A stretch of 32,255 bases of DNA from contig JAHDHT010000012.1 in assembly GCA_020631175.1 (NCBI GenBank), positions 4,494 through 36,748 on the forward strand, read 5' to 3'. Under the pieces are notes generated by a model that saw only the letters and a list, made by a program, of their open reading frames with translations, made no database searches and was not told the DNA's origin. Positions 1-21,179 of the stretch are shown here, one piece after another. This DNA is from Chitinophagales bacterium. Lineage in GTDB: Bacteria; Bacteroidota; Bacteroidia; Chitinophagales; JAHDHT01. Position numbers and translations under genes: made by a program. Position 1 is the first letter of the stretch, and each line of letters begins with the position of its first letter.

Positions 1-3000
1 GATTGTACTGAGCCTGTTTGTTTTTATGATGCTGTAATTGTAAGCACAGATTGCAATACTGACGGAACATACGATCTTGTAGTTGATGTATCAATTACTG
101 ATCCTTTGTCAAATGAATTCTTAGTAACAGTTGATGGAGTACAATTCGGTCCTTACGCTGATAATTATAATGACGGATTAGAAACCATCACATTAAATGG
201 CTTAGCCGGAGACGGAACAGCAAATGTTCAAGTTACGGTTGCTGATGCTGCAGATGGAACTCCGTTGCAACCTGAAGTAATATTTATTTCAGAATTGCAT
301 TATGATAATTTCGGTGGAGATGTTGACGAACAAATAGAGCTTACTGCCTTAGCAGGAACTGATTTGGCTAACTATGAAATTTATTTGTACAATGGTAACG
401 GTGGGGCAGTATACTCTACTGTCTCATTATCCGGAATTGTTTCAGATGAAGCAAATGGATATGGTACTGAAGTGTTCGATGTTACCGGAATACAAAACGC
501 CGATTTTGATGGAACAGGTGATCCGGATGCAATTGCATTAGTTGACATTACTGATCCGGCAAATCCGATTGTAATTCAATTCATTTCCTACGAAGGAACA
601 TTTATTGGATATGGTGGTCCTGCTGATGGAATTTTATCAGAAGATATTGGAGCTGAAGAACCGGGTGAAGTAGGAGAGAGTCTTCAATTAACAGATGCCG
701 GATGGATAGGACCTGCAGCAAATAGTTTTGACGTGTTAAATGCAAACCTCACTGCTGATAGTACACCCGTTATACAGTCTTGTTCTACAACAATTGATTT
801 TGATGCACCATTGTGTACCGTTTGTATGTTAACCGCTTCCGTTGAAATAGGAGATTGTGATGCTAATGATCTGTTTAATATTGATGTTACTGTTGATGAA
901 ATGGATCCTGCTTCTGCTGAATTTACCATAGATCTGCTTGATGCAAATGGCAATGCTATTTTCAACTATGGAACATTTGATTATACAGCAGACCCTGTTT
1001 CAATAGGCCCGTTCATCGGAGATAATATTACAGCCTATAGTATCAGCGTTTCTGATACCGCAGATCCTGATTGCAGCCAGATTGTAAACTTTGGTCCTGT
1101 TTCATGTGAAATAGTTTATAATCCTTCCATCGAAATCGTAAAAGATGATAGTACACCTGATCCAAATGATGCTTCAGACATGGATGGAACAGATACTCAA
1201 ACAGTTGATGAAGGAGATGATGCAAACTTTACAATTACGGTTACCAATACAGGAGATGAAGATTTGACAAATGTTGTTGTGACTGATCCAAATGGAGCAG
1301 ATTGTGAAGCAACATATACTGATAATGATGGAATATTAGCAGTTGGAGAATCATGGACCTATACCTGTACCGTTACAGATGTATCAGCTGACTTTGTAAA
1401 TACGGCTTTCGTTTCTGCAGATGGAGTAAATTCCGGAACTACGGTAAATGATGATGATGCAACAGCAGTTATCGTTGTGCCAATTACTTGTCCTTCATTA
1501 TTTACTTTTGCAGTAGATCAAAATGTAATTTGCAGTAATACAGAAATTAATTTCACAGCAAGTTTAAATCCTGACGATGCAGAAAATGGAACACTTACAA
1601 TTTCTGATGAGGATGGAAATATTCTTACAAATCTTACAGATGATAATGGTGATTTTAATTACACAGGTTCAATAATAGTTACAAATAATTCATGTGCACC
1701 TACAACCAATAACTACACCGTTACTTTAACATGTACGGATACCGGAGATGTAACAGGTTTCGCAACTGAAGATGTTACCGTTTATCCTTCATCGATAGAA
1801 CAATATGTTTCAGTTGTGACCGATGAAGAAAATTGTATGGCAAATGCAGTAATTGATCCGGCATGTGATGGATTTATTAATGCAACAACTTCATTGAATC
1901 AGGCAGGATTACCTGGACAATTATTTAACTATAGTTTCTGTTTTAGTTATTTCAGTGATTCTTCGCCGGGATGTTTCGATTCAGATTTCTGTATTGATGG
2001 TTCGTTTGAATGTGAAGGATGTGAATTTGATGCAGGCATCCTTCCAACCGGAATAAACAAAACATGTTTTGGTAGTACGGTAAGCATACCGGTCTTTGGA
2101 CAGGAAGTTGGGTCAGGAGGAGTATTAACTTATATTCTTCATGATGGAATAGACAATAATATTGGAACAATTTTAGGAAGTAACCAAACTGGAACATTTA
2201 CCAATGATGGAGATTATCCTTTAAATGTCGATTTATTTATCTGCACGGTTGCCGGTTTTGCAACTCCGAATGGCATTCCTGATTTCAATGATGATTGTAC
2301 AGACATTTCAGATGTATGTACACCAGTTAGATTCTTACTTCCGGTTACAATTGAAAGTAATGAAATCTGTAATGATGCAACTGGTGAATTTACCGTAACC
2401 TTTACCGTTACCGGAGGCACACCGTCTGAGCCTGGATTTAGTGGAACTTATGATGTTACCGGTGATTATACCGGAGAGGTATTTGCTGATACTCCAACTA
2501 CAATTGGTCCATTCTCAGATGGAACAACGTGGAGCATAGAGGTTGATGATGACAAAGGTTGTGGAGCTGTGGCAAGCGGAACTGTTCAATGTGAAAAATT
2601 ACCAATTGAGTTGATTAGTTTCACAGGTGAAGTGATTTCGGACGGAAACCTTCTAAAGTGGGAAACAGCAACTGAAATTAATAATGATTATTTCACATTA
2701 GAACGATCTGTTGATGGAGTAAACTTTGAATTCCTTACAACAATTGAAGGTGCAGGTAATTCCTATTCAAACCTCGGTTACGATTATCTCGATAAAGATG
2801 CGCCAAACGGGCTTAGTTACTACAAGTTATGGCAAACTGATTTCGATGGAACTACAAGCTATGCAGGCATAGTTACGCTGCAAAGAGGTGAATCTTCTTT
2901 CGATATTGTTAGCTTAACTCCGAATCCTGCTGTTAATACAATCAGTATTCAATGGCAATCTCCAACCGAATCTGATATTGAAATTGAAATATTGGATGCA

Positions 3001-3150
3001 ATAGGGCAGTTAGTGGCAGTTTACAATGTAAATAGCATTGACGGACTCAATGAAGCATCCTTGAATATATCAGATTTCGCTTCAGGAATTTATTTCGTAA
3101 ATATGAGAAGCGGAGATAAACTGGATACAATTAAGTTCATTAAGCAATAA
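1..3150 (+). CDS. Large T9SS-secreted multidomain cell-surface protein, 5'-partial (N-terminus lies upstream of the window)
   Basis: Frame 1 is open from nt 1. The TTG at 106 used by the ORF track is internal. Contains an LTD-like segment, a DUF11-like repeat, Cys-spaced modules shared with the next gene, a pre-CTD module ('LISFTGEV..KWETATEINNDYFTLERSVDG..YYKLWQTDFDGT') and a C-terminal tail ending 'GIYFVNMRSGDKLDTIKFIKQ'. Confidence 0.85.
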   Translation, partial: DCTEPVCFYDAVIVSTDCNTDGTYDLVVDVSITDPLSNEFLVTVDGVQFGPYADNYNDGLETITLNGLAGDGTANVQVTVADAADGTPLQPEVIFISELHYDNFGGDVDEQIELTALAGTDLANYEIYLYNGNGGAVYSTVSLSGIVSDEANGYGTEVFDVTGIQNADFDGTGDPDAIALVDITDPANPIVIQFISYEGTFIGYGGPADGILSEDIGAEEPGEVGESLQLTDAGWIGPAANSFDVLNANLTADSTPVIQSCSTTIDFDAPLCTVCMLTASVEIGDCDANDLFNIDVTVDEMDPASAEFTIDLLDANGNAIFNYGTFDYTADPVSIGPFIGDNITAYSISVSDTADPDCSQIVNFGPVSCEIVYNPSIEIVKDDSTPDPNDASDMDGTDTQTVDEGDDANFTITVTNTGDEDLTNVVVTDPNGADCEATYTDNDGILAVGESWTYTCTVTDVSADFVNTAFVSADGVNSGTTVNDDDATAVIVVPITCPSLFTFAVDQNVICSNTEINFTASLNPDDAENGTLTISDEDGNILTNLTDDNGDFNYTGSIIVTNNSCAPTTNNYTVTLTCTDTGDVTGFATEDVTVYPSSIEQYVSVVTDEENCMANAVIDPACDGFINATTSLNQAGLPGQLFNYSFCFSYFSDSSPGCFDSDFCIDGSFECEGCEFDAGILPTGINKTCFGSTVSIPVFGQEVGSGGVLTYILHDGIDNNIGTILGSNQTGTFTNDGDYPLNVDLFICTVAGFATPNGIPDFNDDCTDISDVCTPVRFLLPVTIESNEICNDATGEFTVTFTVTGGTPSEPGFSGTYDVTGDYTGEVFADTPTTIGPFSDGTTWSIEVDDDKGCGAVASGTVQCEKLPIELISFTGEVISDGNLLKWETATEINNDYFTLERSVDGVNFEFLTTIEGAGNSYSNLGYDYLDKDAPNGLSYYKLWQTDFDGTTSYAGIVTLQRGESSFDIVSLTPNPAVNTISIQWQSPTESDIEIEILDAIGQLVAVYNVNSIDGLNEASLNISDFASGIYFVNMRSGDKLDTIKFIKQ
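274..735 (+). other. Lamin-tail-domain (LTD)-like segment of the ExeM/NucH 'IHYDN' subtype
   Basis: 'VIFISELHYDNFGGDVDEQIELTALAGTDLANYEIYLYNGNGGAVYSTVSLSG...DPDAIALVD...IQFISYEGTF...GESLQL' matches from memory the LTD pattern seen at the N-termini of extracellular nucleases. Motif recognition only. Confidence 0.5.
1126..1479 (+). other. DUF11 / 'conserved repeat domain'-like Ig-fold module
   Basis: 'SIEIVKDDS...DEGDDANFTITVTNTGDEDLTNVVVTDP...CE...LAVGESWTYTCTVTDVSADFVNTAFVSA' fits the pattern 'F.I.V.N.G...L.NV.V.D.......L..GES....C.Y.V'. Confidence 0.5.
2902..3147 (+). other. T9SS type A C-terminal sorting domain (CTD)
   Basis: The last ~82 aa are 'LTPNPAVNTISIQW...IEILDAIGQLV...GIYFVNMRSGDKLDTIKFIKQ'. 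This is the canonical beta-sandwich CTD pattern (NP-start, G.Y.V.., K.IK. end). Confidence 0.75.
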
Positions 3151-3371: not shown

Positions 3372-6300
3372 ATGAAAATAAACACTACTCTTTTTAATCT
3401 ACTGTGCGCAGTAGCATTGATTTTTAGTGTGCATTATCTACAAGCTCAGGATTGTCCTGCAGCCTACACAGGTATTGCAACCAACAGCGAAGATCAATGT
3501 AATGATAACCTGGCTTTTCCAAATGTCGACGATGTTTTTGGAGGTCTGGTTGACGGTATGGGGCAACCATTTACCGGTTCAGGTGCTGTAATAGCATGGA
3601 ATATTGATCCTTTAACTATTTTACCTGCTGCTGTACCTCCGGGCGTATGTGACCCGGTTAGTACAACTTACGTTGCAACAGTTGAATGTTTATCAGGAAC
3701 TGTTTTATTTGCTGACATATATACCTATCAGGTAAATGTATTCCCTGGCGCTGATGCTTATTCTGTTGATGTAATTGCCGGAGATTGCGGTCAATTATCA
3801 GCTATTGTGGCAAGTCCGGGTTCATGTGATGTTTCTGTTGTTTATAATGAAATAATTCCTGCTGATCCTGCAGCTTGTCCTGCCGGAGCAGATGGTTCAT
3901 TTACATATACTGCAACTCCGGCTAATGGAGGAAGTTGCTGGTCTGAATCTGGAGGAGGAATCATTCCTGCATGTGATACATGTGCGGATTGTCCTGATCC
4001 TTCCAACTTTATTCCACCACCAAACTTTGCTGCATGCTCCGGTGCTTTAATTACATTACCAGACCTTTCTGATTTTGTCGATACAAATGGAAATTCAGGA
4101 GCTACCTTTAGCTGGACTTCTGATGCCGGTTTCGATAGTATGGGTGCAAGCACAGGTTCAGAAGTTTTAGTAAATACAGATTGTGCGCCGCTTGTTGTCA
4201 CCTATACATATGGTATTAGTTGTACCGCAACTGGAGAAAATCTCGGTTCAGGAGCATTCTCTGTGACTGTTTTCCCTACAGATGTTTCTGCATTTGTAAC
4301 TGCAACAGATGGTATTTGTGAAGCTACTGTAACAGTAGATCCTTCATGTGCAGGCGTATTAACTGTTACTCAAACAAGTCCTGCTTCATTCCCGGCTCAG
4401 GCAGGAACAAGTGGAACGGCTACATGGGATGTTGCTTATATAGGAGATGACATCCTTCCAACTGAATGTGTTACAGATTTTACTGTATCAGCAAATTATG
4501 ACTGTCCTTCTGAAGAATGTCCTGTTTCTACATACCCGGGTCAATTAAGTTATGATGTTTGTTCTGGCGACGTAGTAGCCTTAGACGACTTAGCCGGTTT
4601 TGTTTCTTCAACTGATAATGTTGAATTTTTATGGACAGGTAGTAATGGTTTTAACAGTAATGGAGCGAGCTCAGGCTCAGAAACCTTAACAAATACAGGT
4701 TGCGCACCAATGACCGTAACGTATACTTATAATATATTATGTACACTAAACGGTGGTTCTGTAATCGATCAAGGTTCATTTAATGTAACTGTTTATCCTA
4801 CTGATATTTCTTCATTCGTTACGGCAGTACCGGGTGGATGTACAGCAACATTCTCTGTAATGTCTGGTTGTGAAAACTTTATAACAGTTACTCCTTACAA
4901 CGCTTCTACTGGTGAAGTTGGAGTAGGAACTGTAACTGCAAGCCTTAACGGATCTAGCTGTGCACCTTTGTATACAGAATCAGTAGCTGTTGATTGTAGT
5001 GTAGATTGTCCTTCATTTGTTTCGTCATCTATTAGTGCTAATGAAGTTTGTAGCGGACAAGCATTGACTGTTTCAGTTCAATTGTCGAATTCAACAAACG
5101 CTATAGCATCGGTAACCGTTGGTGGTCAAAGCACAACTCTAACAGGAGCTGGCAATGGATTATTTACGGGCAACGTAGTTCTTACAAATGCTGATTGTAA
5201 TGCAAGCACTTCTAACTTAAATATTGTTGCTATTTGTACAGATGATAACTCTATTCTTGCAATGTTAAATGAGACAGTAACAGTTTATCCATCTTCATTG
5301 AATGCTTTCGTAAATGTAAGTTCTTTGGATGGATGTAATCTTCAGGCAACTGTTAATGCCGGTTGTGAAAATGTAATCAGTATAGCAGGAAGTCCGGTAT
5401 TTATGGGAGCTGCAGGAACAAGCGGAACTGCTACATTTAACTTTACTTACTCTGGAGATGCACCTTGTCTGGCAAATAGCTTTAGTGTTGATTTCCCTTA
5501 CAACTGTGCTCCAATGGGTGATGTTTGTCCTATGACGAATGTTCAGATTCCTGCGTCTATGGATGTATGTGGTGGTCAGTCAGTTGTACTTCCTGATTTA
5601 TCAGACTTCCTATTCATTACTGATCCTGATCAAAATGGTTTTGTTTCCTATAACTGGATAGCGACTAATGGATATTCAAGTAATGGTGCAAGTTCTGGTT
5701 CAGATACTCCGGTAAATAATACCTGTAACGTTCAAACCGTAATTTATTCATATAGCATAACATGTGATTTGAATGGTGCATTACTTGCACAAGGTTCAAT
5801 GTCAGCGAATGTTTATCCTTCCAATTTGGCTGCTTTTGCAACTGCTAACGATGGTGAATGTTCTACTTCGGTAACTATTGACCCGACTTGTGGTAGTAAT
5901 ATTATTGTTACACCTCCAAGTCAGACTGCAGCTCCGGGAACTTCCGGTCAACATAACTATATGTTAGTATGGAATGGTGGAGGAACTTGTTCAGATGTAG
6001 CAACTATTACTGCTAACTATAACTGTGCAGGTCAAATGGACGATTGTCCGACTGCAATTATTGCTTCTGCTTCAAGCCTGCAAGCTTGTGATGGGGAAGT
6101 GGTTAGCTTATCAGCAACAAGTAACAATGGATCTGCTATTAACACAACATGGACAGATCAGAATGGAAACGCAGTAGCAAATCCTTCTGCAGTAACGGTT
6201 ACTTCAAACGGATGTGCCCCAGGTTCATTTACTTATACTGTTCTGGCAACTTGTGTTGATAATCCGGCTGTTTCATTTACTGAAACAGTTACCGTAACAG

Positions 6301-8192
6301 CATATCCGTCAGATATCAGTGTTTATGTAACTCCGAACTTCACACCTTGTTCAGCTACTTTTACTGTTCAATCAGGTTGTGAACCTTATATAAATGTTAC
6401 TTCATACACAGCAGCAGCCGGTGAAATGAGTATGGTTAACGTTTCAGCTTCTGCTAATAATAATTTTAATTGCTCAGCTTCAATTACTCAAACTGCAAAT
6501 ATTGACTGTCCGGGTGGAGGTTGTTTCGCTATGGCTCCAACTATCTCTTCGGACAATCCTTCAATTTGTATCGGAGATGGAGAAGTAGTAAATATTTCAC
6601 TTGATTCTTCAAGCCCGAATGATCAAATCGTATATGTTGTTACTGATGCAACAGGAACAACTATTTTAGCTGGTCCTACAACCGATACACAGTTTAATTT
6701 TGACGGAGCTCCTGCAGGTACTTGTTTAATATGGGCAGTAGCACATGATGGTACATTAGTAGCACCAACAGATCAGGTTGCTGATCTTCAGGGTTGTTAT
6801 GCACTTTCTAATCCGGTTTCAGTAATACGTGAAGATTGTAACCTTGGTGGTTTTGATTGCGGAACTTGTTTCCCAGATACTTTGGTATTCTGTACGAATC
6901 CGATTACACCGGTAGAAATTTGTTTGGATTGTGATGGTTCAAATGTAAGTGTAACAGATGTTGAAAGTTTATTCTTCTGCTCAATAGAAAATATTGATGA
7001 TCTGGATGGATGTTTCACATATACTCCACTTCCAAATATGGAGAATTTCTCACCAGATATTCTTACAGCAACTGTTTGTGAGCCTGGTACAAATAATTGT
7101 TGTGAAGTAGTTATTCAGGTTGATATTCAGGAAGATTGTACACCAGAGCCTGTTGATTGCGAAGAATTAATTGAAGTATGCACAGCTCCTATAACTCCGG
7201 TTGACATATGCATTGATTGCTTGTTGGATGGAAGCATTGAAGCAGAAATTGATACGATCTATAGTTTATGGGGATGTTCTATCAATATGATCGGAGATGC
7301 TTGTTTCGAATATGTACCACTTCCGAATCTTGAAGATTTTGGTGGAGATACGGTAATCGTCGAGTACTGTGATAATGCAGGAAATTGTTATCAAACAACA
7401 GTTGCCATTGCTGTAACTGAAGATTGTGAAGATGTTGAACCTCCTGTGGTTGATGAAACTTGTATCGAATATTATGAAGGTTGTATTGCTCCACTTGAAA
7501 CATTCGATTTCTGTCTCGATTGTACTTCAGGTATGAATACAACGGTCGTTATAGACTCAATATATTCTTTATGGAATTGCACCATTAACATGCAGGATGA
7601 TTTCTGCTTCGAATATGTTGCTTTACCAAATATGGATCTTGTTCCTGCTGATACGGTTTACATAGATTATTGTGATACGGTAACTAATGAATGTAGTACT
7701 GCATTATTAGTGATGACATTCAATGATTGTGATGATGATGGTAATGTTATCCCTAACGGAGGAACAGCCGGTGACCAGTTTAATGGTGACATGGGTTCTT
7801 TAGGAGTTCAAAACGATGATACCGTTGTGGATATCATTGATGATGAAGATGATGTAACAGGTGATGATGAAACATCAACAGTTGCTACCAACGAAGATGG
7901 TCAGGTTCGTGATAATTTCGGAGCTTCTGAAGTAGTTTATTCAGATGAACTTCATGCTTATCCAATACCAAGTTCTGACTTCCTGTATATTAATGTAAAC
8001 TTAGATGCTACCGAAAAAGCAGAATTAGTTACTTATAATGCTCAGGGTCAACTTGTTGAAAGTAAAATTGTTTACACAGTAGATGGAAATGCAGTGCTGA
8101 AACTTAACATTCAAGCATATGCTAAAGGTGTTTACTTTGTTTCACTCAAACAGAAAGGTATTGTGAAAACATCTCAATTCATTAAAAACTAA
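3372..8192 (+). CDS. Giant (1606 aa) secreted, Cys-rich, polyacidic repeat protein with T9SS C-terminal sorting domain; probable adhesin/surface-coat protein
   Basis: Signal peptide 'MKINTTLFNLLCAVALIFSVHYLQAQ'. Six 8-Cys modules, one shared 'X' module, three ~96-100 aa Cys repeats, a D/E-rich linker (7731..7946), and a CTD ending 'GVYFVSLKQKGIVKTSQFIKN'. Confidence 0.9.
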   Translation: MKINTTLFNLLCAVALIFSVHYLQAQDCPAAYTGIATNSEDQCNDNLAFPNVDDVFGGLVDGMGQPFTGSGAVIAWNIDPLTILPAAVPPGVCDPVSTTYVATVECLSGTVLFADIYTYQVNVFPGADAYSVDVIAGDCGQLSAIVASPGSCDVSVVYNEIIPADPAACPAGADGSFTYTATPANGGSCWSESGGGIIPACDTCADCPDPSNFIPPPNFAACSGALITLPDLSDFVDTNGNSGATFSWTSDAGFDSMGASTGSEVLVNTDCAPLVVTYTYGISCTATGENLGSGAFSVTVFPTDVSAFVTATDGICEATVTVDPSCAGVLTVTQTSPASFPAQAGTSGTATWDVAYIGDDILPTECVTDFTVSANYDCPSEECPVSTYPGQLSYDVCSGDVVALDDLAGFVSSTDNVEFLWTGSNGFNSNGASSGSETLTNTGCAPMTVTYTYNILCTLNGGSVIDQGSFNVTVYPTDISSFVTAVPGGCTATFSVMSGCENFITVTPYNASTGEVGVGTVTASLNGSSCAPLYTESVAVDCSVDCPSFVSSSISANEVCSGQALTVSVQLSNSTNAIASVTVGGQSTTLTGAGNGLFTGNVVLTNADCNASTSNLNIVAICTDDNSILAMLNETVTVYPSSLNAFVNVSSLDGCNLQATVNAGCENVISIAGSPVFMGAAGTSGTATFNFTYSGDAPCLANSFSVDFPYNCAPMGDVCPMTNVQIPASMDVCGGQSVVLPDLSDFLFITDPDQNGFVSYNWIATNGYSSNGASSGSDTPVNNTCNVQTVIYSYSITCDLNGALLAQGSMSANVYPSNLAAFATANDGECSTSVTIDPTCGSNIIVTPPSQTAAPGTSGQHNYMLVWNGGGTCSDVATITANYNCAGQMDDCPTAIIASASSLQACDGEVVSLSATSNNGSAINTTWTDQNGNAVANPSAVTVTSNGCAPGSFTYTVLATCVDNPAVSFTETVTVTAYPSDISVYVTPNFTPCSATFTVQSGCEPYINVTSYTAAAGEMSMVNVSASANNNFNCSASITQTANIDCPGGGCFAMAPTISSDNPSICIGDGEVVNISLDSSSPNDQIVYVVTDATGTTILAGPTTDTQFNFDGAPAGTCLIWAVAHDGTLVAPTDQVADLQGCYALSNPVSVIREDCNLGGFDCGTCFPDTLVFCTNPITPVEICLDCDGSNVSVTDVESLFFCSIENIDDLDGCFTYTPLPNMENFSPDILTATVCEPGTNNCCEVVIQVDIQEDCTPEPVDCEELIEVCTAPITPVDICIDCLLDGSIEAEIDTIYSLWGCSINMIGDACFEYVPLPNLEDFGGDTVIVEYCDNAGNCYQTTVAIAVTEDCEDVEPPVVDETCIEYYEGCIAPLETFDFCLDCTSGMNTTVVIDSIYSLWNCTINMQDDFCFEYVALPNMDLVPADTVYIDYCDTVTNECSTALLVMTFNDCDDDGNVIPNGGTAGDQFNGDMGSLGVQNDDTVVDIIDDEDDVTGDDETSTVATNEDGQVRDNFGASEVVYSDELHAYPIPSSDFLYINVNLDATEKAELVTYNAQGQLVESKIVYTVDGNAVLKLNIQAYAKGVYFVSLKQKGIVKTSQFIKN
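3450..6509 (+). repeat. Six tandem protein-level copies of an 8-cysteine module of ~165-180 aa (first copy divergent)
   Basis: Module boundaries by hand count: 3450-3986, 3987-4505, 4506-4997, 4998-5507, 5508-6026, 6027-6509. Shared motifs are 'CP..', 'C(S/G)G', 'N(T/G).CAP..VTYTY.I.C', 'F.VTVYP(T/S)D(I/V)S.FVT', 'G.C.AT..V...C'. The DNA copies are diverged, so this is not a recent duplication. Confidence 0.8.
6840..7730 (+). repeat. Three tandem ~96-100 aa Cys-rich repeats (cadherin-like / 'tandem-95'-like flavour)
   Basis: 6840-7139, 7140-7427, 7428-7730. Each has 'C(T/I)(N/A)P(I/L).P(V)..C(L/I)DC ... SL(W/F).C(S/T)I(N/E) ... CF(E/T)Y.(P/A)LPN(M/L) ... D......(Y)C(D/E) ... C ... (E/N)DC'. 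Confidence 0.8.
7947..8189 (+). other. T9SS type A C-terminal sorting domain (CTD)
   Basis: 'LHAYPIPSSDFLYINVNL...LVTYNAQGQLV...GVYFVSLKQKGIVKTSQFIKN'. This is the only lysine-containing part of the protein (8 K in ~81 aa). Confidence 0.75.
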
Positions 8193-8406: not shown

Positions 8407-9783
8407 ATGAGTAAAGCGATAAAGCTAAAAAAGGGGTTCAATATCAATTTAGATGGCAAACCCGAACTTAAGCTTGATAAATCGATTAAGGCAAGTACAT
8501 TTGCCGTGAAACCAGCTGATTTTCAGAGTCTTCGACCAATACCGAAGTTAACAGTTGAGGTAGGAGATGAAGTTCTTGCAGGTGATCCATTGTTTTTTGA
8601 TAAGCCAAATCCTGATGTTTTGTTTACTTCACCGGTAAGTGGAGAAGTTGCAGAAATTAGAAGAGGTGCAAAAAGAGCAATTGATTCGGTAATTATCATT
8701 GCTGATGGAAAGAACCAGTTTAAAGATTTTGGATCTGCAAATCCTAAGAATCTTTCAAGAGAAGACGTAAAAGCTAAACTGAAAGAATCAGGATGTTGGG
8801 CATTTATTAAGCAACGTCCATTTAATATTGTCGCAGAACCTGATGCTGTTCCAAGAGATATATTTATCTCAGCTTTCGATACAAATCCTTTAGCTGCAGA
8901 TACAGAGTTTACACTTGGAGCTGAATTAAAAGCTTTTCAGGCAGGTATTGATGCCTTAAATCAACTTACAGATGGCGATGTCTACGTAGGAGTTAATGGC
9001 GGAATTGGAGGTTCTTCTTTCGATGGCCTTTCAAATTGTACCGTGAATAAGTTTTCCGGTCCGCATCCAGCAGGAAATGTTGGAGTTCAAATTCATCACG
9101 TAAAGCCAATAAACAAAGGTGAAATTGTATGGACGGTTTCTCCTTATGATCTTGTTACCATTGGGAAACTCTTCCTTCATGGTAAGTACGATACTTCAAG
9201 AACAATTGCTATTGGAGGGCCTTCAGTAGCTGAGCCAAAGTATATAACTACTTATTCAGGTGCTAAGGTTTCTGCACTTTTGGATGGAAATATCAACGAA
9301 GAGAATGTTCGAGTAGTATCAGGGTCTGCATTAGTAGGAGATAATATAGGTATCGATGGATTTTTAGGATCATTTCATCATCAATTAACCATTTTAGATG
9401 AAGGTGATTTTTATGAAATGCTCGGATGGATCCTTCCAAGTTATCCTAGACCAAGTATTTCTCCGACAATTCCACCTTTCACTTTAACTACTAAGTTTCC
9501 ATTTATAAAGAAGGTAGATAGCTTTAATGCGAATACAAATACACACGGTGAAAAACGAGCATTTGTGGTTACTGGTCAGTATGAAGCTGTAACTCCAATG
9601 GATATTTTCCCTCAGCAATTGCTAAAAGCTATTCTAAGTAATGACTTAGATAAAATGGAAGGTTTAGGAATATATGAGGTCGTTGAAGAAGATATGGCTC
9701 TTTGCGAATTTGTTTGTACATCTAAGTTTAATGTACAGGAGACACTTCGTAAGGGCTTAGATTTAATGAGAGAACAAGGTTAA
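8407..9783 (+). CDS. nqrA: Na+-translocating NADH:quinone oxidoreductase subunit A
   Basis: 'MSKAIKLKKGFNINLDGKP' N-terminus, 'SPVSGEVAEIRRGAKRAI', 'FSGPHPAGNVGVQIHH'. First gene of the canonical nqrABCDEF order. Confidence 0.95.
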   Translation: MSKAIKLKKGFNINLDGKPELKLDKSIKASTFAVKPADFQSLRPIPKLTVEVGDEVLAGDPLFFDKPNPDVLFTSPVSGEVAEIRRGAKRAIDSVIIIADGKNQFKDFGSANPKNLSREDVKAKLKESGCWAFIKQRPFNIVAEPDAVPRDIFISAFDTNPLAADTEFTLGAELKAFQAGIDALNQLTDGDVYVGVNGGIGGSSFDGLSNCTVNKFSGPHPAGNVGVQIHHVKPINKGEIVWTVSPYDLVTIGKLFLHGKYDTSRTIAIGGPSVAEPKYITTYSGAKVSALLDGNINEENVRVVSGSALVGDNIGIDGFLGSFHHQLTILDEGDFYEMLGWILPSYPRPSISPTIPPFTLTTKFPFIKKVDSFNANTNTHGEKRAFVVTGQYEAVTPMDIFPQQLLKAILSNDLDKMEGLGIYEVVEEDMALCEFVCTSKFNVQETLRKGLDLMREQG

Positions 9784-9803
9784 AAAAGATAAATAAAGAT
9801 TCA

Positions 9804-11072
9804 ATGCGCAAAGCGAGTTTTTTACGGAAGCAAATAGATAAGGTAAAACCTTATTTTAACAGCAATCCGATATTACATACGGTTTTCGATGGACTTGAAA
9901 CTTTTTTGTTTCAACCTAATGAAACTACTACATCCAAAACCCACATTAAGGATGGGATGGATTTAAAACGTACGATGGTGCATGTTGTAATTGCTATGGC
10001 ATTATGTGCAGCACATGGTACGATGAACATTGGTCATCAGCACTATGCAAGCATGGGAATGTTTCCTGGTTTGTTTGATGGTTTATTGTACAAATTAACT
10101 TACGGTATTATTCAGTTCCTGCCAATTTTCACAGTAGTGCATTTAGTTGGACTGGGGATTGAATTCTTGTTTGCCGCATCTAAAGGGCATGCAATCGAAG
10201 AAGGCTTTCTGGTCTCCGGTTTCCTTATTCCGCTTATAATGCCGCCTGATATTCCTTTATGGATGGTAGCTGTTGCCACTGCTTTTGCGGTAATCATAGC
10301 TAAAGAAGCATTTGGTGGTACGGGAATGAATATATTGAATGTGGCATTAACAGCAAGGGTCTTCGTGTTCTTTGCTTATCCAACAGCAATCTCCGGAGAT
10401 GAAGTTTGGATTGCGCAGGATTACAATATCATTCATCAGATAATCGGTTTACCTCAAGTTGCTTTTGAACATTTTGGTATTAACAAAATGCCGGATGGAG
10501 GCTGGGCCACAATGATGGTCGACGGCTATACCGGAGCTACTCCATTGGCTTTAGCGGCTAAGGGTGGATGGCCTGCAGTAACAGAATATTATTCACTAAA
10601 CGATATGATTATGGGTTTCATCCCTGGTTCAGTTGGTGAGATGAATAAATTATTAATCATTGCCGGAGCTGCATTCTTAGTTTTTACCGGAATTGGAAGT
10701 TGGAGAATTATGCTTTCAATGTTAGTAGGCGCTATCGTTATGGGCATTCTTTTAAATGTAATAGGAGGTGCAATGGGGCTCGATCAAACGGCATTTGTTA
10801 ATGTGCCATGGTATTATCAATTAATTATGGGATCCTTCTTCTTTGCAATGGCCTATATGGCAACGGACCCCGTAACAGCTGCTCAAACTGAAAGTGGTAA
10901 ATATATTTATGGATTCCTTATAGGAGTAGTCGGTATGATTGTTCGGGTGCTTAACCCGGCATATCCGGAAGGATGGATGTTAGCCATCTTATTACTAAAT
11001 GTATTTGCTCCGTTAATTGATCATGTTATTGTTAATAGAAATATTAAAAGGAGGTTAGCTCGTGTCGGATAA
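9804..11072 (+). CDS. nqrB: Na+-NQR subunit B (polytopic membrane protein, covalent FMN)
   Basis: Multi-TM protein with the FMN-attachment motif 'GYTGATPLA', plus 'MATDPVTA' and 'NVFAPLIDH'. Confidence 0.95.
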   Translation: MRKASFLRKQIDKVKPYFNSNPILHTVFDGLETFLFQPNETTTSKTHIKDGMDLKRTMVHVVIAMALCAAHGTMNIGHQHYASMGMFPGLFDGLLYKLTYGIIQFLPIFTVVHLVGLGIEFLFAASKGHAIEEGFLVSGFLIPLIMPPDIPLWMVAVATAFAVIIAKEAFGGTGMNILNVALTARVFVFFAYPTAISGDEVWIAQDYNIIHQIIGLPQVAFEHFGINKMPDGGWATMMVDGYTGATPLALAAKGGWPAVTEYYSLNDMIMGFIPGSVGEMNKLLIIAGAAFLVFTGIGSWRIMLSMLVGAIVMGILLNVIGGAMGLDQTAFVNVPWYYQLIMGSFFFAMAYMATDPVTAAQTESGKYIYGFLIGVVGMIVRVLNPAYPEGWMLAILLLNVFAPLIDHVIVNRNIKRRLARVG

Positions 11073-12129
11073 TATTAAAACAGTATTATACGCAGCAGTT
11101 ATGACGTTAATTGTTGCGATCTCTTTAGCTTTCATTACTTCGTTTCTGAGACCAACTCAAAAGGCAGAAGAAAATAAAGACAAGAAGGTAAATATTCTTA
11201 AGGCCGTTGAATTCAACGACTTTATGGATGTCGATGAAGAGTATGCTAAGCGTATACAAGAATTGGTTGTCGATTACAATGGAAAAGTTGTTGAAGGAAA
11301 AAAGGCCTTCGATGTAGATGTTAGAAAAGAGTCGAAAAATAAACCGGCTGAAGAAAGAATGTATCCTTTGTACGTTTACACCAATGATGCTAAAGAGAAG
11401 AAATATATCCTTCCAATGATTGGTCTTGGTCTTTGGGATGAGATATCTGGATTCATGGCTCTTAAAGGTGATTTCAATACCATTGATGGTGCTGTTTTTG
11501 CCCACAAAGCGGAAACACCAGGTCTGGGCGCTGAGATAACAACAGATTGGTTTCAAAGTCAATTTCGAGGTAAAAAGCTAATGGATGCAGGTGGTAAAAT
11601 GATATTTAATGTTCTCAAAGGTCGTGGAAATACATTAGATCAATATGAAGTCGATGGCATTACCGGTGCAACAATTACATGTGTTGGAGTTGATAATATG
11701 ATAGCTGAAGATGTTGCTTCATATGCTAATTTCTTCAAATCAGAATCAAAGAAATTATCTGTAGCATCAGGAGGGAAATCAGTTAATCCTGCTTTGAAGA
11801 ATCCAACTGTTACAAGAATGGCTAAAGATTTTTTCAAGATTGACAAAGTTAGAATCGCTAATCAGATTAATTTCCATAATAACTCATCATTTGTAACTGA
11901 AAATTCATTTCCTCAAATTCAGGCATTGGTTGCTTATTTAAATAACAATCCTGAAAAACGAGTGAAGATTAAAGTGAATAACAAGAATAATGGTGAGCTT
12001 TCTCAAAGAAGATCAGAAAATATTTATGATTATGCACTTCAGCAAGGTGCGAGAATAGCTCAGTTAGAGTTTGAAGGAACAAGTGAAAAGAATAGAAATA
12101 ATAACGTAGTTTTTGAATTATTAAACTAA
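11062..12129 (+). CDS. nqrC: Na+-NQR subunit C with an unusual ~125 aa C-terminal extension resembling a degenerate OmpA-like domain
   Basis: The GTG start overlaps the nqrB end by 11 nt. Has an N-terminal TM helix, 'ETPGLGAEI' and the FMN-attachment motif 'DGITGATIT'. The canonical NqrC core ends near aa 228, but the ORF continues to aa 355. Confidence 0.9.
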   Translation: MSDNIKTVLYAAVMTLIVAISLAFITSFLRPTQKAEENKDKKVNILKAVEFNDFMDVDEEYAKRIQELVVDYNGKVVEGKKAFDVDVRKESKNKPAEERMYPLYVYTNDAKEKKYILPMIGLGLWDEISGFMALKGDFNTIDGAVFAHKAETPGLGAEITTDWFQSQFRGKKLMDAGGKMIFNVLKGRGNTLDQYEVDGITGATITCVGVDNMIAEDVASYANFFKSESKKLSVASGGKSVNPALKNPTVTRMAKDFFKIDKVRIANQINFHNNSSFVTENSFPQIQALVAYLNNNPEKRVKIKVNNKNNGELSQRRSENIYDYALQQGARIAQLEFEGTSEKNRNNNVVFELLN

Positions 12130-12135
12130 GTATTT

Positions 12136-12825
12136 ATGAGTACTGCAACAGCAGATCAGATAGAAGAAGTAAAAGTACCCAAGAAAGAACGGGAACCCTT
12201 ATTTTCAAAAAAGAACAGAGAATTAATAACAGACCCGCTTGACGATTCGAATCCGATAACGGTGCAGGTATTAGGTATTTGTTCGGCATTGGCAGTTACT
12301 ACACAAGTTAAGCCGGCATTCGTGATGTCGATTTGTGTAATTTTTGTTTGTGCCTTTGCGAATTTAATTATCTCATTATTGAGAAACGGAATTCCATCCA
12401 GAATTCGAATGATTGTTCAATTGGTAGTAATTGCGACGCTTGTAACATTGGTAGCGGAATTCTTAAAGGCTTATCAATATTCATTGTCAAAAGAATTAAG
12501 TGTATACATTGGTCTTATTATTACGAATTGTATCGTAATGGGGCGTCTCGAAGCATTTGCAATGGCAAATAAACCCTGGCCTTCATTATTAGACGGTATC
12601 GGTAACGGTATCGGCTATGGTGCGATACTTATTTTTGTAGCTGTATTCAGAGAATTTTTGGGTTCAGGTTCCTTATTCGGATTTCAAATCATTCCGGATT
12701 GGATGTATGGTATCGGTTATGCCAATAACGGAATCATGCTCACACCTGCAGCAGCTATGTTCTTAATTGGTGTCTTTATTTGGTGGCAAAGAGCAAGAAA
12801 CCAAAAATTAGTTGACATCTCATAA
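12136..12825 (+). CDS. nqrD: Na+-NQR subunit D
   Basis: Polytopic RnfE/NqrD-type membrane protein: 'NPITVQVLGICSALAVT', 'YIGLIITNCIVMGR'. Confidence 0.95.
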   Translation: MSTATADQIEEVKVPKKEREPLFSKKNRELITDPLDDSNPITVQVLGICSALAVTTQVKPAFVMSICVIFVCAFANLIISLLRNGIPSRIRMIVQLVVIATLVTLVAEFLKAYQYSLSKELSVYIGLIITNCIVMGRLEAFAMANKPWPSLLDGIGNGIGYGAILIFVAVFREFLGSGSLFGFQIIPDWMYGIGYANNGIMLTPAAAMFLIGVFIWWQRARNQKLVDIS

Positions 12826-12843
12826 TTTAAATTTCGAAGAATC

Positions 12844-13461
12844 ATGTTAGAAGCTTTAAATATATTTATTCAATCCGCATTCATCGAAAATATGGTATTA
12901 GCCTATTTCCTTGGGATGTGTTCTTTTCTTGCTGTTTCGAAAACGGTTAAAACAGCTTTTGGTCTTGGTCTTGCAGTAATCTTTGTATTAGCGATGACAA
13001 CTCCAATCAACTGGGCGATAAAAAACTTCTTCTTAAATGAAGGTGCATTAGCCTGGATAAATCCTGCATGGGCAGATGTTGATCTTAACTTTTTAGGCTT
13101 AATTATTTACATCGCCGTTATTGCATCATTTGTGCAACTTGTTGAAATGATTGTAGAACGTTTCTTCCCTGCACTTTATACTTCTTTAGGTATTTTCCTT
13201 CCATTAATTACAGTTAACTGTTCTATTCTTGGTGGAACTTTATTTATGATTACTAAAGAGTATAATTTCTGGCAATCTATTCCTTACGGTTTAGGTTCAG
13301 GATTTGGGTTCTTCCTTGCAATTGTTGCTTTAGCAGCAATTAGAGAAAAATTAAGATATAGTGCGGTACCCGCACCGTTACGTGGTCTTGGTATAGCTTT
13401 TATCATTACCGGATTAATGGGTATTGCATTCATGAGTTTTATGGGAATTAAAATCTCATAA
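12844..13461 (+). CDS. nqrE: Na+-NQR subunit E
   Basis: RnfA/NqrE-type protein: 'ENMVLAYFLGMCSFLAVS', 'GIFLPLITVNCSILGG'. Confidence 0.95.
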   Translation: MLEALNIFIQSAFIENMVLAYFLGMCSFLAVSKTVKTAFGLGLAVIFVLAMTTPINWAIKNFFLNEGALAWINPAWADVDLNFLGLIIYIAVIASFVQLVEMIVERFFPALYTSLGIFLPLITVNCSILGGTLFMITKEYNFWQSIPYGLGSGFGFFLAIVALAAIREKLRYSAVPAPLRGLGIAFIITGLMGIAFMSFMGIKIS

Positions 13462-13510
13462 ATCAAACTTTAATAAATTGAAACTGTTTATTCAATAAAA
13501 GAAATTATAG

Positions 13511-14806
13511 ATGGTATTAATTAGTAGTCTTGTCTTTTTAATAATAATGTTATCTCTTGTAGGCTTATTACTTTTTGCTAAGTCTAAATTGGTTCCTTCA
13601 GGTGATGTCACCTTGGTCATTAATGGTGATGATGCGAATCCTGTTGTAACAAAACCGGGAGATACACTTTTAACAGCCTTATCTGAACAAAACTTATTCC
13701 TTCCTTCTGCTTGTGGAGGAGGTGGTACATGCGCTATGTGCTTATGCCAGGTGACAGAAGGCGGCGGAGATGTTTTGCCGACAGAAATGAATCACTTAAC
13801 CAGAAAAGAAGCTAAAGAACATTGGAGATTGGCTTGTCAGGTAAAAGTGAAAAACGATATGAAAGTTCAGGTGCCTGAAGAGGTATTTGGAATTAAAAAA
13901 TGGGAATGTGAAGTAGTCTCTAACTACAACGTTGCCTCTTTTATTAAAGAGTTTGTAGTTAAACTTCCGGAAGGAGAGAGCATGCATTTTGAATCGGGTG
14001 GATATATTCAGATCGATGTACCGAAAATAACGGTGCCCTTCAAGGATATGGATATTTCACCACTTCCTAACGATCCGGCCGGAAAGGATAAATATCAGTC
14101 TGAATGGGATAAATTCCAATTATGGGATTTAGTTATGAAGAATGAAGAAGAGCAATTCCGTGCTTATTCGATGGCTAATCACCCTGCTGAAGGAAATGTT
14201 GTAATCCTTAATATTCGTATTGCAACGCCACCTTGGGATAGAGCTAAAAACACCTGGATGAATGTTAATCCGGGAGTGTGCTCATCATATGTTTTCGGAT
14301 GTAAGCCAGGAGATAAAGTGGTAGTTTCTGGTCCTTATGGTGAATTCTTTATTAAAGAAACCAAAAAAGAAATGGTTTACATTGGTGGTGGTGCCGGTAT
14401 GGCTCCATTAAGATCACACCTTTTCCATTTATTTCACACATTAAAAACTACTGACAGAAAAGTTTCATTCTGGTATGGTGGTAGAACAAGAAGAGAATTA
14501 TTCTATATCGATGAATTCAGAGCCATTGAAAGAGAATTTCCAAACTTCAAATTTTATGTAGCATTAGATAACCCGTTACCGGAAGATAACTGGAATGAAA
14601 AAACTACAATTGAAGAAGAAGGAGATGGTTTCATCGGATATATCATGCCGGTTTGTTATAACATGTATTTAAAAAATCATCCGGAACCGGAAGAAATAGA
14701 ATACTATTTCTGCGGACCTCCTTTAATGAATGCTTCGGTAATTAAAGCATTAGATGAATTAGGTGTACCGGAAGAAAATATTGCCTTTGATGATTTCGGA
14801 GGTTAA
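13511..14806 (+). CDS. nqrF: Na+-NQR subunit F (2Fe-2S ferredoxin + FAD/NADH domain)
   Basis: N-terminal TM helix, 2Fe-2S motif 'CGGGGTCAMCLC...C', FAD motif 'RAYSMAN', and 'GGGAGMAP' NAD(H) loop. Confidence 0.95.
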   Translation: MVLISSLVFLIIMLSLVGLLLFAKSKLVPSGDVTLVINGDDANPVVTKPGDTLLTALSEQNLFLPSACGGGGTCAMCLCQVTEGGGDVLPTEMNHLTRKEAKEHWRLACQVKVKNDMKVQVPEEVFGIKKWECEVVSNYNVASFIKEFVVKLPEGESMHFESGGYIQIDVPKITVPFKDMDISPLPNDPAGKDKYQSEWDKFQLWDLVMKNEEEQFRAYSMANHPAEGNVVILNIRIATPPWDRAKNTWMNVNPGVCSSYVFGCKPGDKVVVSGPYGEFFIKETKKEMVYIGGGAGMAPLRSHLFHLFHTLKTTDRKVSFWYGGRTRRELFYIDEFRAIEREFPNFKFYVALDNPLPEDNWNEKTTIEEEGDGFIGYIMPVCYNMYLKNHPEPEEIEYYFCGPPLMNASVIKALDELGVPEENIAFDDFGG

Positions 14807-17039: not shown

Positions 17040-18155
17040 TTAGCTTAATAACATTAAATCTTTTTTAAATTTATTAGCAAGTTCTTTTAAATAATTACTG
17101 GCATTCGCTATTGCGTCGTCTTTATTTTTTGCAATATCGACAATGCTGTAAATTTTATCTGTATATATCTCTGCCATCTGATCTTCTTTGATCTTATTTA
17201 TTCCGGAAAATAAAATTAGTGGTTTATTATATTGTCTGCATAGTTTAGAAACTCCCGAAATAACTTTACCGTCTAAAGATTGACTGTCAATACAGCCTTC
17301 ACCACTAATGATTAAATCTGCCGATTTAATTTTATCTTCTAATCCGGTTACTTTAGAAATGGCATCAAAACCGTTAACGAGCTTTGCATTAAAAAAAGCA
17401 AGGATGGATGCAGAAACTCCCCCTGCTGCTCCGCATCCATCCATTTGAGAAAGATCGATTCCGACATTATTTTTAATTATGTTGCAATAATGTCGTAAAC
17501 CTGAATCCAGCATTTCGATTTCTTTCTCACTTGCACCCTTTTGTTTTCCATATACATAAGCGGCACCGTTTTCACCGTACAGCTTGTTATTTACATCGCA
17601 TAAAACTTCTATTGAAATTTTTTCTAAATCAAGTTCTGATTGATTATTAATAGAGTCGATAGAAATCAAATTTTCTCCGATAGGTTTTAGTTTTTCTTTT
17701 TCATTATTTAGAAATTCAATTCCAAAAGCATTTGCTAAACCAATTCCACCGTCATTTGTAGCACTCCCTCCAATGAAAAACAATATTTTATCAGCCCCGT
17801 TTAAAATGGCATGTCTGATCATCAACCCCGATCCATTTGTACTTGTATACATAGGATTTCTTTCAGACGGATCTAGTAATACTAAGCCACTTGCCTTAGC
17901 CATTTCAATATAAGCCGTATTATTTTTTTTGTAGTAGTCAGAAGTAATTGGTCTTCCAATCGGGTCTACCGTTTCAACTTTTATTTTATTTAATGCCAAA
18001 AATTTTGATAAGATTTCAATTGAACCATCTCCTCCATCAGCCAGTGGATGACTACTTGTGTCGACACCACCATTCAGAGTTGAAGAGATAATTTCGCAAA
18101 TCTCAAATGCACTTAGTGAACCTTTAAATTTATCCGGAGCAATTAAAATTTTCAT
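17040..18155 (-). CDS. Glycerate kinase (GlxK/GarK family)
   Basis: 'MKILIAPDKFKGSLSA', 'LADGGDGS', 'IGGSATNDGGIG', 'ISGEGCIDSQSLDGKV'. Confidence 0.9.
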   Translation of the reverse strand: MKILIAPDKFKGSLSAFEICEIISSTLNGGVDTSSHPLADGGDGSIEILSKFLALNKIKVETVDPIGRPITSDYYKKNNTAYIEMAKASGLVLLDPSERNPMYTSTNGSGLMIRHAILNGADKILFFIGGSATNDGGIGLANAFGIEFLNNEKEKLKPIGENLISIDSINNQSELDLEKISIEVLCDVNNKLYGENGAAYVYGKQKGASEKEIEMLDSGLRHYCNIIKNNVGIDLSQMDGCGAAGGVSASILAFFNAKLVNGFDAISKVTGLEDKIKSADLIISGEGCIDSQSLDGKVISGVSKLCRQYNKPLILFSGINKIKEDQMAEIYTDKIYSIVDIAKNKDDAIANASNYLKELANKFKKDLMLLS

Positions 18156-18167
18156 TTGATAACTACT

Positions 18168-19733: not shown

Positions 19734-19752
19734 ACAATAATATTTAAACTAA

Positions 19753-21069: not shown

Positions 21070-21074
21070 AGATA

Positions 21075-21114
21075 TAAATAAAAAGGGGTAAAAGCATTCG
21101 CAGACTTTTACCCC
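21075..21114 (-). terminator. Intrinsic terminator/attenuator between the TonB receptor and the GH63 gene
   Basis: Perfect 10-bp stem GGGGTAAAAG/CTTTTACCCC (21085-21094 / 21105-21114) with a 10-nt loop. On the minus strand it is followed by TTTTTATTTAT. Confidence 0.65.
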
Positions 21115-21179
21115 TGATTCCAAATTTTATGAAAGTCTACATTTAATTACTCATTTAAAAGTAATTAACCAAACACGAA

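Follow-up and report, generated by a model that had tools for sequence, protein, structure and literature searches.

A stretch of 32,255 nucleotides (nt) from a Chitinophagales bacterium (contig JAHDHT010000012.1), referred to here as the window, contains a gene at nt 3372-8192 on the forward strand that, from the open reading frame (ORF) list and its translation, encodes a cysteine-rich cargo protein of the type IX secretion system (T9SS) with 1606 amino acids (aa) and 85 cysteines. The protein carries six tandem copies of an eight-cysteine unit, and a seventh copy lies in the neighboring gene upstream. On the basis of predicted structure, each unit is a pair of immunoglobulin (Ig)-like β-sandwich domains, here called lobes A and B, and not a single domain or a new fold; the cysteines are very probably joined in disulfide bonds, as their pattern of conservation and loss suggests. 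The reading that we favor, at a probability of about 65%, is that this Ig-like pair serves as a stiff, disulfide-stapled spacer, and that such spacers build up the stalk of a surface adhesin or fibril exported by the T9SS. From sequence we infer the role as spacer or adhesin, the rigidity, and the surface anchoring. The eight-cysteine double Ig-like unit is a family-level novelty within the Ig-like repeat arrays of T9SS surface proteins, and its fold class is an ordinary one among surface proteins of Bacteroidota.

The six units, of 161-179 aa each, occupy aa 27-1046 of the protein (nt 3450-6509). When all seven copies were aligned, the eight cysteine columns were invariant, as were P3, G48, P97 (of the VTVYP motif), and G140, and pairwise identity among the copies was 23-45% at the protein level. 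Hidden Markov models built with one copy left out at a time matched six of the copies at E values of 1e-18 to 1e-32 (Z = 1e5). A profile constructed from the proteins of other organisms only matched seven of seven copies, six of them at 2e-29 to 2e-36 and unit 1 at 2e-4. The regularity of the repeat is far beyond chance and is not a composition effect. Recent duplication at the DNA level was ruled out, as no tandem repeat of ~500 nt was found in the DNA; together with the low identity among copies, this indicates that the duplications are old.

The cysteine counts and spacings listed in the original prediction, which had been made from the sequence alone, were recomputed and agree throughout. 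The protein has 85 cysteines, 84 of which follow the putative signal peptide (C12 lies within the signal-peptide-like segment), and each of the five best copies, units 2 to 6, has exactly eight. In these five copies, the gaps are 15/14/14/14/14 for C1-C2, 49/47/49/52/42 for C2-C3, 13 in all five for C3-C4, 32/33/33/32/32 for C4-C5, 10 in all five for C5-C6, 40/30/34/33/31 for C6-C7, and 12/12/13/12/12 for C7-C8. The gaps of 15, 50, 13, and 33 given for the divergent first copy (aa 27-205), which has 10 cysteines in total, were confirmed, as were those of 14, 54, 13, 34, and 10 for the upstream copy at nt 1486-2013.

Along the array, all on the forward strand, unit 1 (aa 27-205, nt 3450-3986) retains the C1-C5 spacing and has a changed lobe B, and the external-only profile matches it at E 2.3e-4 (Z = 1e5) over profile positions 3-153. 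Unit 2 (aa 206-378, nt 3987-4505), the copy that was modeled, matches the external profile at 1.7e-36, with lobe A at approximately nt 3987-4277 and lobe B at approximately nt 4278-4505. The remaining copies follow directly: unit 3 (aa 379-542, nt 4506-4997, 2.4e-35), unit 4 (aa 543-712, nt 4998-5507, 4.7e-36), unit 5 (aa 713-885, nt 5508-6026, 4e-34), and unit 6 (aa 886-1046, nt 6027-6509, 1.9e-32).

No model in Pfam-A or NCBIfam gave an above-threshold match on any copy of the unit, and the sole significant match in the protein was its T9SS C-terminal domain (CTD). The original prediction had been unable to place the module in a known family, and the libraries bear this out: no Pfam-A or NCBIfam model covers the unit, and there was no profile match to the module as a whole. 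Below threshold, the window units gave hints of K319L-like_PKD (PF22352) at residues 25-90 (E 0.04, 14.3 bits against a cut-off of 27) and, on one unit, of HYR_4C (PF23237) at residues 117-152 (E 0.067, 13.8 bits against a cut-off of 27). A Pfam scan of 63 mutually diverse instances likewise produced sub-threshold matches only, to K319L-like_PKD in six (counted at E < 0.1, best 0.0037), I-set in four, Ig_3 in three, Big_7 in three, and HYR_4C in two (best 0.033). HYR (PF02494) and SprB (PF13573) had no match on these 63 instances, SprB had none on the window proteins either, and cadherin and carbohydrate-binding-module families matched neither the window copies nor the 63 instances. When PDB sequences were searched with the unit profile, nothing scored better than E 0.24, and the weak matches (the PKD of KIAA0319L, a phage decoration protein, and T4 Hoc) all fell on lobe A. 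In the papers that were searched, we found no earlier description of the unit and nothing relevant on PF23237 or PF22352.

Relatives of the unit were recovered by an exhaustive profile search of 1.84 billion cluster representatives, which returned 226 proteins at E ≤ 1e-3, 132 at 1e-10, and 43 at 1e-30, with most matches spanning the full profile. Among the best 150 matches, 125 proteins have at least one near-full unit, together amounting to 510 units with a maximum of 27 per protein, and there are 344 head-to-tail junctions, at which the C8-to-C1 spacing is mostly 3-6. The largest family members are 6016-6187 aa long. In a word-indexed protein search, the seven-copy profile found no relative and the whole 1606-aa protein only three; unit 5 alone found no relative among genome contigs. 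A degenerate DNA motif for [VI]T[VI]YP[ST]DIS[AS]F led to one true locus, in a Chitinophagales metagenome-assembled genome (MAG), with at least 3.5 units. A second locus with this motif, in an Oscillospiraceae MAG, was discarded as a chance match, with no unit there. The taxonomic distribution is thin, with a Sphingobacteriales MAG (MBK8442120.1) and the Chitinophagales MAG as named carriers. The closest homolog, P0151 (48% identity), comes from Joint Genome Institute (JGI) metagenome samples with the record prefix BBAY (BBAY70, BBAY68), which we take to be a marine macroalgal-surface sampling series.

Unit 2 was modeled with AlphaFold2 (AF2) from two alignments, one consisting of the seven internal copies and the other of 63 diverse homologs. 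The first gave a predicted local distance difference test (pLDDT) score of 87.5 and a predicted template modeling (pTM) score of 0.77, and the second gave 92.5 and 0.83, respectively. The model is all-β, with 11-12 strands in two blocks at residues 14-96 and 104-172. Lobe A, with C1-C4, comprises ~95 aa; lobe B, with C5-C8, comprises ~75 aa and five strands. The top matches of Foldseek against the PDB were all tandem β-sandwich pairs, namely cadherin EC1-2, SraP, Sidekick Ig, SGBP-B, and the base and neck of GhpA, a T9SS substrate of Aureispira, at E 1e-4 to 1e-3 and query-normalized template modeling (TM) scores of 0.38-0.46.

The unit profile also matches Cys-free repeat proteins, over positions 16-100 only, and in Pfam these proteins turn out to be K319L-like PKD arrays. 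A PKD profile for hhalign was prepared from 134 repeats of Cys-free proteins, seeded by Pfam coordinates. Lobe A aligned to this profile with 73% probability (E 3.1e-5, 67 of 94 columns), which supports lobe A being a distant, K319L-like relative of PKD that falls below membership of the PKD family. For lobe B the probability was 1.4%, and the PKD likeness covers lobe A only, not the whole unit. A duplication of one lobe into the other was rejected, with an hhalign probability of 2.7%. As far as these profile comparisons reach, lobe B is a small sandwich without a detectable relative.

The two lobes travel together. The profile matches include 375 of full length vs 2 on lobe B only; within Cys-rich proteins, the matches on lobe A only either break off at a contig end or continue into a divergent lobe B. 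The whole profile (positions 3-169) is matched in single-copy proteins as well. Judged by these matches, lobes A and B are an obligate unit, always together in Cys-rich proteins.

All eight cysteines are kept in 391 of the 428 near-full instances (91%). Their pairing was tested by natural cysteine losses, with column edges and tolerances widened and the sequences read by eye; the wider tolerance was used because a tight one gave artifacts from alignment edges and shifted cysteines. C2 is absent in four instances only, and in three of them (P0095, P0122, P0028) C7 is missing as well (Fisher p = 1.7e-5). Loss of C5 was seen three times (P0026, P0132, P0148), each time together with C8 (p = 2e-4). 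These paired losses support a C2-C7 disulfide, which would link the two lobes, and a C5-C8 disulfide inside lobe B, which would close its far end. P0088, which lacks C1 and has C4, was rejected as pairing evidence, being an N-terminally truncated fragment. Cys-rich proteins with lobe A alone were sought in order to deduce internal pairs, and only truncated or divergent cases were found.

The other two bonds can be approached through strand topology. C3-C4 and C7-C8 each bracket one strand of 8-11 residues and therefore cannot bond, and the pairings left by elimination are C1-C4 with C3-C6 or C1-C3 with C4-C6. With an up-and-down Ig topology laid on the AF2 strand order, C1 and C4 are placed at the N-terminal pole of lobe A and C2 and C3 at its C-terminal pole, while C6 and C7 are placed at the N-terminal pole of lobe B and C5 and C8 at its far pole. 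In this model strand order, C2, C3, C6, and C7 all lie at the A/B interface. Both co-loss pairs agree with this arrangement, from which disulfides C1-C4 and C3-C6 are predicted, with C3-C6 as a putative second inter-lobe bond. If true, the A-B junction would be stapled twice, which would explain the high pTM of the two-lobe model.

Besides leaving the module unplaced, the original prediction had attributed to it a HYR/Ig-like flavor, had found the cysteine number compatible with full disulfide pairing, and had suggested that it may be an undescribed disulfide-laddered surface domain. The flavor is right at the level of fold, according to AF2 and Foldseek. Nothing suggests an unpaired cysteine, and C2/C7 and C5/C8 are lost together. 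The proposed domain is indeed uncatalogued, with no library model, yet it resolves in the models into two Ig-like sandwiches, the first of them PKD-related, and not a single new domain. Similarly, the paired losses point to the cysteines as disulfide partners, but a sequential ladder fails, as C3-C4 and C7-C8 cannot pair and C2-C7 appears to cross the lobes.

The T9SS is a system of Bacteroidota (FCB group), and the most likely source of the window is accordingly a MAG of a marine member of that phylum. A T9SS CTD terminates 75% of the 124 carrier proteins, of type A in 53 and of type B (CHU_C) in 40, and most of the others are visibly truncated. Across 368 external instances of the unit, the conserved residues are the eight cysteines plus Pro, Gly, Leu, Trp, Val, and Tyr only. 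No charged or polar position is conserved in these 368 instances, and no acidic residue is conserved at ≥60%. This absence speaks for a scaffold and against a conserved site of binding or catalysis.

In the mechanism that we propose, the putative Sec signal peptide would direct the 1606-aa protein to the periplasm, where it would be oxidized and fold, and the folded protein would then cross the outer membrane by the T9SS and be attached to, or released from, the cell surface. Within each unit, lobe A (a diverged PKD-type domain) and lobe B would be locked by four disulfides, and consecutive units would be joined by the 2-5 residues between C8 and the next C1, with no cross-link. Six units, or 12 Ig-like domains, would measure ~45-50 nm when extended, assuming ~4 nm per Ig domain. 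Such an array would form a stiff, reduction-sensitive, protease-resistant stalk, which in a marine member of the Bacteroidota would carry the N-terminal end of a surface adhesin or fibril at a distance from the cell.

Several points weigh against this stalk reading. Two carriers, P0084 (1833 aa, two units) and P0121, end in an IPTL-CTERM signal and not in a T9SS CTD, so the unit is not strictly tied to the T9SS. The neighboring genes (T9SS cargo upstream, nqrA-F downstream) give no functional clue, and variable loops could still bind ligands. The co-losses come to three plus three instances, and P0095 and P0122 may represent one evolutionary event; the C1-C4 and C3-C6 bonds are based on strand topology and elimination only. 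The Foldseek TM score is at most 0.46, which is a match at the level of fold class, and hhalign relates lobe A to PKD with a probability of only 73%.

The array might also be read as alternating copies of two catalogued domains, a PKD-type domain and then a HYR-type domain with four cysteines (PF23237), that have diverged below library thresholds. The sub-threshold K319L-like_PKD (E 0.04) and HYR_4C (E 0.067) hints fit this explanation, as do the alignment of lobe A to PKD repeats (hhalign E 3e-5) and the presence in lobe B of four cysteines, as the name HYR_4C implies. We nevertheless consider it unlikely. Only 6 of 63 diverse instances match K319L-like_PKD and only 2 of 63 match HYR_4C, far below the 27-bit cut-offs, and HYR and SprB never match. 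Lobe B shows just 1.4% probability against PKD, and the co-loss of C7 with C2 argues that it is not a self-contained four-cysteine domain. In Cys-rich proteins, moreover, the lobes are never apart.

It is rather improbable, in our estimate, that the units are ligand-binding modules, either carbohydrate-binding or Ca2+-dependent and cadherin-like, whose repetition would let the protein bind multivalently to the surfaces of algae or prey. Conserved charged or polar residues are lacking in the 368 instances, there is neither a conserved Ca2+ site such as DxNDN/DxD nor a conserved pocket, and no cadherin or carbohydrate-binding-module family matches the units. What speaks for binding is that the structural neighbors include cadherins, the glycan-binding SGBP-B, and the SraP adhesin, that the closest homolog comes from BBAY samples (presumed by us to be of macroalgal-surface origin), and that the 1606-aa protein is extremely acidic.

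The idea of a single undescribed eight-cysteine surface domain, with a fold of its own and four sequential disulfides as a ladder, can draw on the lack of a library model covering the unit, on the conservation of the eight cysteines as a set across 428 instances, and on the way the unit evolves as a single module, matched at full length in 125 proteins. We judge it very unlikely, as both AF2 models show two strand blocks, the top Foldseek matches are all two-domain Ig or cadherin pairs, lobe A by itself is homologous to free-standing PKD repeats, and the sequential bonds C3-C4 and C7-C8 are impossible, each bracketing one strand of 8-11 residues. We judge it likewise very unlikely that copies of the protein assemble, as protomers, into a multi-stranded grappling hook like that of GhpA or a similar supramolecular appendage. 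For this reading, Foldseek places GhpA fragments near the top (9fly_A at rank 1 in one search, 9flp_A in another), GhpA is also a T9SS substrate with Ig-like repeats and inter-domain disulfides, and family members reach 6016-6187 aa and 27 units, some of them from MAGs of Chitinophagales or "Sphingobacteriales". Against it, no GhpA chain is similar in sequence at E up to 10, the protein here has just 1606 aa, no PorP/PorE homolog adjoins its gene within the window (a cargo gene lies upstream and nqrA downstream), and the Foldseek TM score to GhpA is low, at 0.37-0.41.

The spacer reading can be taken further, to a version that we regard as possible but speculative. Lobes A and B together would be an uncatalogued, doubly stapled rigid-rod module, making up its own family of T9SS fibrils, the largest with 27 units and over 6000 aa, among marine Bacteroidota of Chitinophagales or Saprospiria type, which are sparsely sampled; the inter-lobe disulfides would replace the Ca2+ sites of cadherin and RTX-adhesin stalks, and lobe B would represent a new small β-sandwich family.

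Large T9SS surface proteins of Bacteroidota are mostly unannotated outside the C-terminal signal, and ~95% of the 1606-aa protein is without a library match. A family model of the unit would annotate at least 125 large proteins, with ~510 instances among the 150 best matches. It would also provide a clear example of an inter-domain junction stiffened by disulfides instead of calcium, which parallels the experimental observation on GhpA. No new fold, mechanism, or pathway is revealed, and the value lies chiefly in annotation and structural classification.

Outside the unit array, the 1606-aa protein, which is identical to database protein P0001, has further parts, again all on the forward strand. 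The putative N-terminal Sec-type signal peptide, read from the sequence, covers aa 1-26 (nt 3372-3449), MKINTTLFNLLCAVALIFSVHYLQAQ, and holds Cys12; by eye, it has a basic start, a hydrophobic core, and an A-x-A-like end, LQA|Q. After unit 6, a segment of ~113 aa with five cysteines (aa 1047-1159, nt 6510-6848) separates the array from a second type of repeat, and neither Pfam, NCBIfam, nor the unit profile matches this segment. The second repeat, also Cys-rich, comprises three copies of ~100 aa (aa 1160-1462, nt 6849-7757) with 9-10 cysteines each; aligned with one another, the copies show the motifs C[TI]xP[IL]x5C[LI]DC, YSLWxC[ST]IN, and CFEYVxLPN[ML]. It has no match in Pfam or NCBIfam, is not matched by the eight-cysteine unit profile, and is unrelated to the unit.

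An acidic, low-complexity linker rich in D, E, T, and G, recognized by sequence and composition (aa 1463-1529, nt 7758-7958), leads to the type A T9SS C-terminal sorting domain (aa 1530-1606, nt 7959-8189). This domain was identified by both libraries, as Por_Secre_tail (PF18962, 37.7 bits against a cut-off of 27, aa 1530-1603) and as TIGR04183 (34.3 bits against a cut-off of 23). Overall, the composition of the protein is extreme, with 0.6% K, 0.1% R, 0.2% H, and 8.0% D and an abundance of T, V, S, and A. It shows no enrichment of D[ST][AILVMT], the O-glycosylation motif of Bacteroidota, with 8 sites against 10.7 ± 3.0 in shuffled sequences.

Directly upstream on the forward strand (nt 1-3150) is the second T9SS cargo gene, whose product combines one unit with a type A CTD and, at aa 340-453, a DUF7507/DUF11 domain. 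The reading frame stays open as far as nt 1, with a stop-to-stop length of 1049 codons, and the edge of the window or contig may truncate the gene; the database call, P0022, has 1014 aa and starts at a TTG at nt 106. The seventh unit, at aa 461-636 of this 1014-aa call (nt 1486-2013, forward strand), matches the external profile at 2.4e-29. It is a 10-Cys variant with an extra pair of cysteines in lobe B, and this variant is also present in other family members. The closest homolog of the 1606-aa protein, P0151, lies on a metagenome contig (L003 2662-14074) directly downstream of a T9SS cargo gene of DUF7507/CLIPPER type (CLIPPER_2), a gene order that the window shares. The P0151 contig also carries a giant LTD-domain protein further upstream and, downstream, an AhpC/redoxin gene where the window has nqrA.

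Directly downstream of the unit gene is an nqrA-F-type Na+-NQR operon (nt 8407-14806, forward strand), in which NqrA, NqrB, and NqrF were assigned by Pfam. A DsbH-like thioredoxin (DUF255) protein of 698 aa is encoded at nt 26604-28700 on the reverse strand. No link was established between either the Na+-NQR operon or the DsbH-like protein and the Cys-rich proteins. A reverse-strand cluster at nt 17040-21123, with a glycerate kinase, a sodium:solute symporter, and an MGH1-like mannosylglycerate hydrolase, looks like a system for uptake and catabolism of a compatible solute of the mannosylglycerate type. T9SS machinery genes were absent among the window ORFs scanned. When window proteins were looked up in a collection of 15 billion proteins clustered at 90% identity, the two cargo proteins, NqrA, NqrB, NqrF, and YchF all proved to be singletons, which indicates that the source lineage is very sparsely sampled.

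Among characterized domains, the PKD families (K319L-like PKD, PF22352; PKD, PF00801 and PF18911) resemble lobe A in sandwich size, strand order, profile-level relation, and reciprocal weak matches, and PKD arrays are likewise common in T9SS cargo proteins. PKD repeats, however, are free-standing and ~85 aa long, with 0-0.5% Cys in the matched proteins, whereas lobe A, always accompanied by lobe B, has four near-invariant cysteines plus an additional "C-P" segment at its N terminus and scores ≤14 bits against the 27 required. HYR_4C (PF23237), a HYR-like domain with four cysteines, is, as lobe B appears to be, a small Ig-like module with four cysteines, and it gives weak matches on lobe B at E 0.03-0.07. 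In contrast to a member of that family, only 2 of 63 instances match, at ~14 bits vs 27, and C7 of lobe B appears to be bonded to lobe A.

The nearest characterized analog is GhpA (PDB 9fly, 9flp, 9g8b), which shares the T9SS and Ig-like repeats and is among the best structural matches. GhpA of Aureispira is a T9SS substrate of 5,898 aa with 52 Ig-like repeats that forms a heptamer, and cryo-electron microscopy found its neighboring Ig-like domains to be joined by intramolecular disulfides, to which the authors propose that the stem owes its straight, rigid form; PorP- and PorE-like partners, GhpB/C, are encoded in the GhpA gene cluster (bioRxiv 10.1101/2024.01.29.577165). The unit differs in that it has no sequence homology to GhpA and in that, within the window, no PorP- or PorE-like genes adjoin its gene, which is flanked by the cargo gene upstream and nqrA-F downstream. 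By analogy, the 1606-aa protein would at most work like the GhpA stem, and not as a member of the GhpA system. Finally, cadherin EC1-EC2 gives the best structural superposition, with two tandem sandwiches and a fixed junction (query-normalized TM up to 0.46). Cadherin junctions are made rigid by Ca2+ at conserved acidic motifs, whereas the junction within the unit has no conserved acidic residue and appears to be fixed by disulfides.

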